A stretch of 64,000 nt of DNA from Escherichia coli (lineage in GTDB: Bacteria > Pseudomonadota > Gammaproteobacteria > Enterobacterales > Enterobacteriaceae). Below the pieces are notes generated by a model. The model had not been told where the DNA came from. It did no database searches and was given only the letters and a program-made list of their open reading frames with translations. The stretch is from assembly GCF_003334355.1 (NCBI RefSeq), contig NZ_QOWP01000018.1; one strand, 5' to 3'. The position numbers and the translations under genes are program-made. Below, piece by piece: positions 44,282 to 45,769 of this stretch (position 1 is its first letter; each line of letters opens with the position of its first letter).

Positions 44282-44321
44282 GTGAGAGCTGTAACTCTCG
44301 CTTTTCTTATTTCCCTTGCAT

Positions 44322-44349
44322 AAAAAAGCCAACCCGCAGGTTGGCTTTT
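44322..44349. terminator. Bidirectional terminator between convergent chiQ and fur
   Basis: Stem agccaacc / ggttggct, loop cgca, A5 before and T3 after. Confidence 0.7.
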
Positions 44350-44364
44350 CTCGTTCAGGCTGGC

Positions 44365-44811
44365 TTATTTGCCTTCGTGCGCGTGCTCATCTTCGCGGCA
44401 ATCGCCTTCGGCACAGTGACCGTAAAGATAGAGACTGTGGTTAGTCAGGCGAATGCCATGTTTTGCGGCAATTTCACGCTGACGCGCTTCGATGGAATCA
44501 TCACTAAATTCGATAACCTTGCCGCAGTCGAGGCAGATCAGGTGATCGTGGTGATGTTGCTGTGTCAGTTCAAATACGGATTTACCGCCTTCAAAATTGT
44601 GGCGGGTGACGATACCAGCGTCGTCAAACTGGTTCAGTACGCGATATACCGTAGCCAGACCAATTTCTTCACCCATATCGATCAGACGTTTGTATAAATC
44701 TTCCGCACTGACGTGATGGTTGTCCGGCTCCTGAAGAACTTCCAGGATTTTTAAACGAGGAAGCGTTACTTTCAGGCCAGCTTTCTTTAGGGCGGTATTG
44801 TTATCAGTCAT
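44365..44811 (-). CDS. fur: Ferric uptake regulator
   Basis: 148-aa ORF (MTDNNTALKKAGLKVTLPRLKILEV...). Confidence 0.95.
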   Translation of the reverse strand: MTDNNTALKKAGLKVTLPRLKILEVLQEPDNHHVSAEDLYKRLIDMGEEIGLATVYRVLNQFDDAGIVTRHNFEGGKSVFELTQQHHHDHLICLDCGKVIEFSDDSIEARQREIAAKHGIRLTNHSLYLYGHCAEGDCREDEHAHEGK

Positions 44812-44890
44812 GCGGAATCTGTCCTGTTACTAAGCGGTTCACTTCATTAGAAGAAGTGACAGAATTTGCTCTTGAGATAATGCGTATCAT
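44804..44890 (-). CDS. uof: Fur upstream leader ORF (28 aa)
   Basis: MIRIISRANSVTSSNEVNRLVTGQIPHD; stop overlaps the fur start; a Fur-box-like palindrome gataatgcgtatcattat lies at 44876-44893. Confidence 0.55.
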   Translation of the reverse strand: MIRIISRANSVTSSNEVNRLVTGQIPHD

Positions 44891-45099
44891 TATAGAATTG
44901 CCACGCCTAAATGAAAACCACAAGTCCCTGGCAAATATTGTTAATAAAAACGTGGCATAGCTTACATTTACAACGGCAAGGCCACTTGAACACCGGGACA
45001 TTGTACAGGTACAACAGCAAAAGTTACAAATTTGTAGCAATTATTTTGATTGGCATTATCTATTAATACGGCGTAGACATGAGTCTACGCCGCATCACA

Positions 45100-45630
45100 T
45101 CAGGCATTGAGAATTTCGTCGAGATGCAACTCTTCAGAAATCTGTTTAACCCATTTTTCTACACGTTCAGCGGTCAGTTCCGGCTGACGGTCTTCGTCGA
45201 TAGCCAGACCGACAAAGTGGTCGTCATCTGCCAGACCTTTTGATGCTTCGAAATGATAGCCCGCAGTTGGCCAGTGACCAACGATGGTTGCACCGCGCGG
45301 TTCAATGATGTCGCGGATGGTGCCCAATGCGTCGCAGAAATATTCGGCGTAATCTTCCTGGTCACCACAACCAAACAGCGCAACCAGTTTGCCATTGAAA
45401 TCAATCTCTTCGAGAGTCGGGAAGAAGTCATCCCAGTCACACTGCGCTTCGCCGTAATACCAGGTTGGGATGCCCAGCAGCAGAATGTCATAAGCTTCCA
45501 GATCTTCTTTGCTGCTTTTTGCAATGTCATGGACATCGGCAACGTCTTTACCAAGCTGTTTTTGAATCATTTTTGCGATATTTTCGGTATTACCGGTGTC
45601 GCTGCCGAAAAAGATGCCAGTGATAGCCAT
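45100..45630 (-). CDS. fldA: Flavodoxin 1
   Basis: Start trimmed to ATG 45628-45630 ([19 protein letters not shown]-binding loop), 176 aa. Confidence 0.95.
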
Positions 45631-45769
45631 GAGTGAAATAACCTCTTGAAACTTATTGAAATGGGGGTGGAAAATTGCCCACGGATAAAGGCAATCATAG
45701 CAGAACAGGCAGTCTTGCGGAATCAGCAAACGAGCAGGACTGCACACTGTGCTACATGAAAGTGGAAAT

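Follow-up and report, generated by a model that had tools for sequence, protein, structure and literature searches.

A palindrome over the uof start codon of Escherichia coli read as the Fur operator of the fur promoter

A palindrome that covers the start codon of uof, the short open reading frame immediately upstream of fur in Escherichia coli, is very probably a DNA operator: by binding it, iron-loaded Fur represses one promoter of its own gene. Operator, promoter, uof and the control exerted by RyhB are already published and in part annotated. An earlier reading of the same DNA, made from the sequence only, had left undecided whether the palindrome serves as a Fur operator or as an RNA pairing site; that question is answered by a published footprint at 44873..44902 and by a gel shift carried out on the exact fragment.

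The window analysed, a stretch of 64,000 nt, spans the chiP-chiQ-fur-uof-fldA region of E. coli. A 1.4-kb query taken from it (44300-45700) was matched at 95-100% identity in 5,425 of 5,426 complete E. coli genomes, with the best match at 100%, and fldA, fur and uof are annotated beneath these matches. The 60-nt core that holds the promoter and the Fur box was 100% identical in 4,706 of the 5,425 matching genomes. Addition of 665,835 to a window coordinate gives the position in NC_000913.3, and the numbering of NC_000913.2 is 777 lower, both offsets having been verified on the fur coordinates. The genes of interest are:

44365..44811, minus strand: fur coding sequence, from the list of open reading frames and annotation, with its ATG at 44811..44809
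44804..44890, minus strand: uof, 28 codons and a stop, MIRIISRANSVTSSNEVNRLVTGQIPHD, from its translation and the RefSeq label 'fur leader peptide'
45630..45100, minus strand: fldA

In MG1655, uof is annotated as b4637, 'RyhB-regulated fur leader peptide'. The fur locus of the window strain differs from that of MG1655 by one base, which lies approximately 65 nt upstream of the box. At this position (44958), within the 5' leader of the upstream promoter Puof, the minus strand carries an A here and a G in MG1655, and the A creates an ATG (44958..44956) that is absent from K-12.

The letters of the palindrome that the sequence-only reading had placed at 44876-44893 were confirmed (GATAATGCGTATCATTAT, plus strand). 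Whilst the palindrome is real, its proposed extent of 18 nt required correction, in that the symmetric core is a 17-mer (44877-44893) with perfect 6-nt arms, ATAATG and CATTAT, flanking a 5-nt centre, and the canonical 19-bp box extends over 44876-44894:

44876..44894, TATAATGATACGCATTATC on the minus strand: autoregulatory operator of fur, a 19-bp Fur box, from consensus, matrix and its naming in gel-shift work

This sequence agrees with the 19-bp Fur consensus GATAATGATAATCATTATC at 16 of 19 positions (3 mismatches), and was the sole match at up to three mismatches in the 64 kb; 100 dinucleotide-preserving shuffles gave none. Nine of the 11 other footprinted Fur sites have more mismatches than the fur box and two have an equal number, with only fhuF1 lying nearer to the consensus. 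A palindromic matrix was also built from the 11 footprinted sites of Chen 2007 (PMC2189734, Table 3), with fur omitted, for which the regions were taken from MG1655 and the best consensus match was picked in each. The fur box scored 18.9 bits and ranked first among 63,982 window positions, within the range of the training sites (12.6-23.0 bits) and near the ryhB promoter box (19.7 bits), which was likewise outside the training set. The sequence-only reading had proposed a Fur weight matrix as a check, naming a low score as evidence against the box; the score obtained is high. A site of at least 18.9 bits was present in 2.5% of simulated 64-kb sequences. Four other matrix matches (51973, 19162, 17096 and 63333; 13.5-15.1 bits) were dismissed as chance, the best score in random 64-kb sequence being 14.3 +/- 2.0 bits.

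Binding of Fur to this DNA has been published, with the protected region converting to window coordinates as follows:

44873..44902: DNase I footprint of Fur at fur (NC_000913.2 709931-709960), as given in Chen 2007, Table 3, citing de Lorenzo 1988

The footprint encloses the Fur box, the uof ATG and the hexamer TATAAT. In the authors' own model (Chen 2007, PMC2189734) the strongest fur site has 12.3 bits, near the bottom of a footprinted set that ranges from 11.5 to 23.3. The 110-bp 'fur promoter' fragment of Fontenot et al. 2023 (PMC10318462) corresponds to window 44911..44802; it was shifted in gels by [2Fe-2S]-Fur and not by apo-Fur, and TATAATGATACGCATTATC was named as its Fur box. Autoregulation of fur is stated in reviews, and a plasmid-borne EcPfur::lacZ fusion showed no effect of iron in the wild type (PMC7867234); the autoregulation may be weak or modest. 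Nothing useful on Fur ChIP at uof came from a literature search, and neither fur autoregulation nor uof is mentioned in two papers on the Fur regulon.

The box coincides with a promoter. A promoter scan returned the following elements:

44889..44894, minus strand: perfect -10 hexamer TATAAT of Pfur, which is the left arm of the Fur box
44912..44917, minus strand: -35 hexamer TTTTCA of Pfur
44993..45029, minus strand: Puof, comprising TTGTAA (45029..45024), an 18-nt spacer, TACAAT (45005..45000) and a start at 44993

Pfur, with TTTTCA, a 17-nt spacer and TATAAT, agrees with the promoter consensus at 10 of 12 positions, and the TTGTAA-18-TACAAT arrangement of Puof was identified as the constitutive 'uof-fur' promoter by genomic SELEX with RNA polymerase (Shimada 2014). 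Transcription starts were taken from Kim et al. 2012 (PMC3415461), who enriched primary transcripts with terminator exonuclease from mid-log cells grown in M9 glucose, and whose printed flanking sequences equal the window exactly:

44881, minus strand, NC_000913.2 709939(-): 46 reads, an A, the strongest fur start, inside uof
44818, minus strand, NC_000913.2 709876(-): 28 reads, 7 nt before the fur ATG
44993, minus strand, NC_000913.2 710051(-): 8 reads, upstream of uof
45024, minus strand, NC_000913.2 710082(-): 5 reads, upstream of uof

Relative to the Pfur start at 44881, the Fur box covers -13..+6, where repressors classically bind, and the uof ATG falls at -9..-7. The comparison with mapped starts suggested by the sequence-only reading therefore places the motif on a promoter rather than outside any. 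The same arrangement has been described before, namely Pfur within the uof frame, a separate Puof upstream and a Fur box overlapping the -10 element of Pfur (PMC7867234; PMC6191717). The first base of Pfur transcripts is the tenth of uof, 9 nt past the A of its ATG, and these transcripts lack that codon. Puof transcripts carry it, with the Fur box at +100..+118. The supplement of a Cappable-seq study contained no starts in the fur/uof region. Cotranscription of ybfE-fldA-uof-fur has also been reported (Conway 2014). A 13-nt inverted repeat (45066-45095, 92% complementary) stands directly after the fldA stop and has no T-run, and a terminator scan of 44700-45200 reported none, which together fit the published read-through from fldA into uof-fur. 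Two further observations concern the starts and the upstream promoter. The second strong 5' end, at 44818, may mark a promoter or a processing product resistant to exonuclease, and an mRNA beginning there would be nearly leaderless and devoid of a Shine-Dalgarno sequence. Just upstream of the -35 element of Puof lies a weak Fur-like site, GATAATGCCAATCAAAATA (45042-45060, minus strand; 10.8 bits, rank 8 in the window). Zheng 1999 reportedly described an OxyR site in this region.

The uof ATG (44890..44888) lies inside the Fur box (44876..44894) and the frame of 28 codons is borne out by translation, as the sequence-only reading had it. Its statement that the uof stop overlaps the fur start holds for the frames, which share 8 nt (ATGACTGA), although the TGA itself (44806..44804) falls just past the fur ATG; with this 8-nt overlap of the uof stop and the fur start region, the locus has the arrangement expected of translational coupling. 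None of the Shine-Dalgarno-like tetramers AGGA, GGAG, GAGG or AAGG occurs in the 25 nt before the uof ATG (44891-44915, minus strand), and fur has AGGA. The -10 hexamer ends on the A and T of the uof ATG, and the G follows directly after it. The overlap between box and start codon is thus a by-product of the promoter arrangement.

A search with the Fur protein retrieved 80 Enterobacterales loci, of which 79 unique upstream regions were compared. Per-base conservation was 81-100% for the -35 element TTTTCA and 96-100% for the -10 element TATAAT, and the two hexamers, the GAnACGC that follows and the start A were together about 90-100% conserved as far as Dickeya, Pantoea and Hafnia. In the same set, identity drops from 97% to 51% in the right arm of the box, which across genera decays to 51-73%. 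At position 9 of the box most genera carry a G, and a T is present in E. coli and some relatives (Citrobacter, Salmonella arizonae). The Fur matrix gave 16-19 bits for Escherichia, Citrobacter, Salmonella arizonae and Enterobacter; in Pantoea and Yersinia-type sequences the score fell to 3-7 bits.

The fate of the uof frame was followed in the 71 species with TATAATG. The frame reaches a stop that overlaps the fur start in 42 of the 71, and falls short of the fur ATG by 18 nt or more in another 24, among them Salmonella arizonae, Citrobacter sedlakii, Klebsiella oxytoca and Raoultella; four species have it in frame with fur, and one has lost the overlapping stop. From these comparisons the ATG appears to be conserved as part of the promoter, with the uof frame a clade-level addition laid over it, and it is the reading as a promoter that seems to drive conservation of the segment. 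In Buttiauxella and its relatives (L063, L064, L066 and L069), where the ATG of TATAATG opens a frame that runs into fur uninterrupted by a stop, it could give Fur an N-terminal extension of 22-23 residues instead of a separate upstream frame.

Pairing between RyhB and the leader was predicted with a RyhB sequence that matches E. coli genomes at 100% identity, where Rfam RF00057 scores 83 bits at that locus. Duplexes were scanned in 24-nt windows with accessibility costs; RNAduplex on the full-length RNAs was rejected, as it returned unrealistic duplexes of 80-160 nt with huge loops. The two best predicted sites and a stem-loop within uof are:

44857..44871, minus strand: GAGCAAAUUCUGUCA, best predicted site, pairing with RyhB nt 38-48; rank 1, total -6.3 kcal/mol
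44897..44905, minus strand: CGUGGCAAU, second predicted site, pairing with RyhB nt 40-50; rank 2 in the duplex scan
44839..44859, minus strand: stem-loop UCACUUC-UUCUAAU-GAAGUGA inside uof; -8.5 kcal/mol, z = -4.6

The first site exceeds its shuffles (p = 0.004), begins 5 nt after the box and is carried by long and short transcripts alike; in it, C at 44868 is predicted to pair with G44 of RyhB and G at 44869 with C45. The second does not differ significantly from shuffles (p = 0.11), stops 6 nt short of the uof ATG and occurs on long transcripts only. Both use G44 and C45, residues of RyhB reported to be essential (PMC6191717). The RNA of the Fur box itself pairs with RyhB at -7.9 kcal/mol, shuffles giving -6.8 +/- 1.9 (p = 0.26), hence the palindrome does not qualify as a seed site. 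The pairing of RyhB within the palindrome, which the sequence-only reading had considered, is thus displaced to predicted sites on either side of the box (44871..44857 and 44905..44897). The duplex can be drawn further, adding to the seed helix base pairs between GUAUUA (RyhB 60-65) and UGAUAC, which takes in the final two bases of the AUG and the four that follow. This extended duplex may resemble the published model of RyhB-uof pairing, which is said to reach the terminator stem of RyhB and which several programs reportedly failed to reproduce.

The whole palindrome is present on long transcripts only, as the strongest mapped transcript starts within it. On long transcripts the palindrome is predicted, in both the minimum-energy and the centroid structure, to fold into a 6-bp A-U hairpin that includes the AUG, at -2.1 kcal/mol, which is too weak to matter much. 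The stem-loop at 44839..44859 has counterparts at the equal place in other genera, with different stems (ACUUCC/GGAAGU, GCUCC/GGAGC, GCCC/GGGC and GCUC/GAGC), and the retention of a hairpin with differing stems suggests a conserved structure of the fur leader rather than a conserved peptide. It was recognized by folding each sequence separately; RNAalifold on a plain MAFFT alignment of 20 leaders missed it, the stems not being in structural register. In the centroid fold of the short transcript, UCUGUC (44858-44863) pairs with GACAGA (44818-44823, minus strand), which overlaps the Shine-Dalgarno region of fur (AGGACAGA), and the best predicted RyhB site overlaps the UCUGUC arm. A permissive Rfam scan of 44300-45700 detected no known RNA family, and the sub-threshold matches to isrD (E = 0.35) and a snoRNA (E = 0.39) were put down to chance.

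These data allow the alternatives to be weighed. It is very improbable, in our estimation, that the palindrome acts mainly in RNA, either as part of the RyhB-uof duplex or as a hairpin hiding the AUG, and so controls uof initiation directly. Such a role could draw on the extended duplex, which reaches UGAUAC at the AUG and fits the published model, said to extend to the RyhB terminator stem, and on the AUG-containing hairpin of long transcripts. Against this, RyhB pairs with the box no more strongly than with shuffles, the two best accessibility-corrected sites fall outside it, the strongest transcript (44881) lacks the 5' arm and the AUG, an A-U hairpin of so little stability is a trivial barrier to a ribosome, and several methods reportedly failed to reproduce the published duplex. 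The symmetry of the palindrome moreover fits the Fur DNA consensus base for base.

That the segment is only a promoter core (-10 TATAAT, discriminator and start), its resemblance to a Fur box being incidental and physiologically unimportant, we hold to be very unlikely. The -10 element alone explains the left arm fully and the right arm is poorly conserved; TATAATGAnACGCA is kept as far as Pantoea and Dickeya, where the Fur score is approximately 3 bits, and the EcPfur::lacZ fusion without an iron effect in the wild type (PMC7867234) points the same way. Yet Fur protects and shifts this very DNA in vitro, the right arm ATTATC is kept in Escherichia, Citrobacter, Salmonella and Enterobacter together with scores of 16-19 bits, and the T at position 9 of the box adds approximately 3 bits toward the Fur consensus. 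A chance match in A/T-rich DNA, devoid of function, is scarcely credible: whilst 2.5% of simulated 64-kb sequences hold an equal-scoring site, the palindrome sits exactly on the mapped promoter of the Fur gene itself and is invariant in thousands of E. coli genomes, and the published binding data refute such a reading.

The operator interpretation has close precedents. The E. coli K-12 fur autoregulatory operator (de Lorenzo et al. 1988, as cited in Chen 2007 and Fontenot 2023) is the identical element at the identical locus. The Fur box of the ryhB promoter is likewise a 19-bp operator over the -10 and start region of a sigma-70 promoter, of similar score (19.7 against 18.9 bits), but has no embedded start codon of a reading frame and controls a small RNA rather than the regulator's own gene. 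The Pfur Fur box of Yersinia enterocolitica, TATAATGAGACGCAATTGA, is homologous, in that it overlaps the -10 element at an equal distance from fur, although its right arm is degenerate (8 mismatches; 6.9 bits in our matrix) and, unlike in E. coli, fur has no uof frame there (PMC7867234). The coupling of uof to fur with repression by RyhB (Vecerek et al. 2007, as described in later papers) belongs to the same locus and involves pairing of G44 and C45 of RyhB with uof RNA; that mechanism differs in acting on RNA and in requiring a transcript with the uof AUG, and the seed site is predicted elsewhere than in the palindrome.

In the operator mechanism we favour, iron-loaded Fur would bind 44873..44902 as a dimer and thereby hide the -10 element and start site of the sigma-70 promoter Pfur; that repression proceeds by such occlusion we infer from the position of the box, and bound Fur may also act as a roadblock to the long transcripts from Puof or fldA. 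The uof ATG is transcribed only from Puof (start 44993) or by read-through from fldA and ybfE, and control by RyhB would work through RNA flanking the box rather than through the palindrome. The notion of the sequence-only reading that Fur binding and translational control share one segment does not hold in this form, in that Pfur transcripts lack the uof codon and the RyhB sites are adjacent to the box. That reading is thus supported in part: it is right on the Fur box and on its overlap with the start codon, but the two controls act on different transcript isoforms, and on RNA segments that are adjacent and not identical.

As the uof AUG lies at -9..-7 of a Fur-controlled promoter, Fur occupancy could select between isoforms. 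It is a tentative and rather doubtful proposal that occupancy sets which fur mRNA is made, beyond its amount, with the two isoforms obeying different post-transcriptional rules: a short, uof-less mRNA starting at 44881, which RyhB reportedly lowers, and a long, uof-bearing set from Puof and fldA that depends on translational coupling.

As a discovery the palindrome is of little importance, and its value is that of a worked example, in which one 19-bp segment is at once a repressor operator, a -10 element, a transcription start and the start codon of an upstream frame. For work on uof it matters that the Fur-regulated transcript lacks the uof AUG. Since the uof ATG overlaps the -10 element, a change of its A or T also damages the hexamer and a change of its G alters the next base, and the phenotypes of uof start-codon mutants expressed from native DNA may thus confound lost coupling with lost promoter activity.
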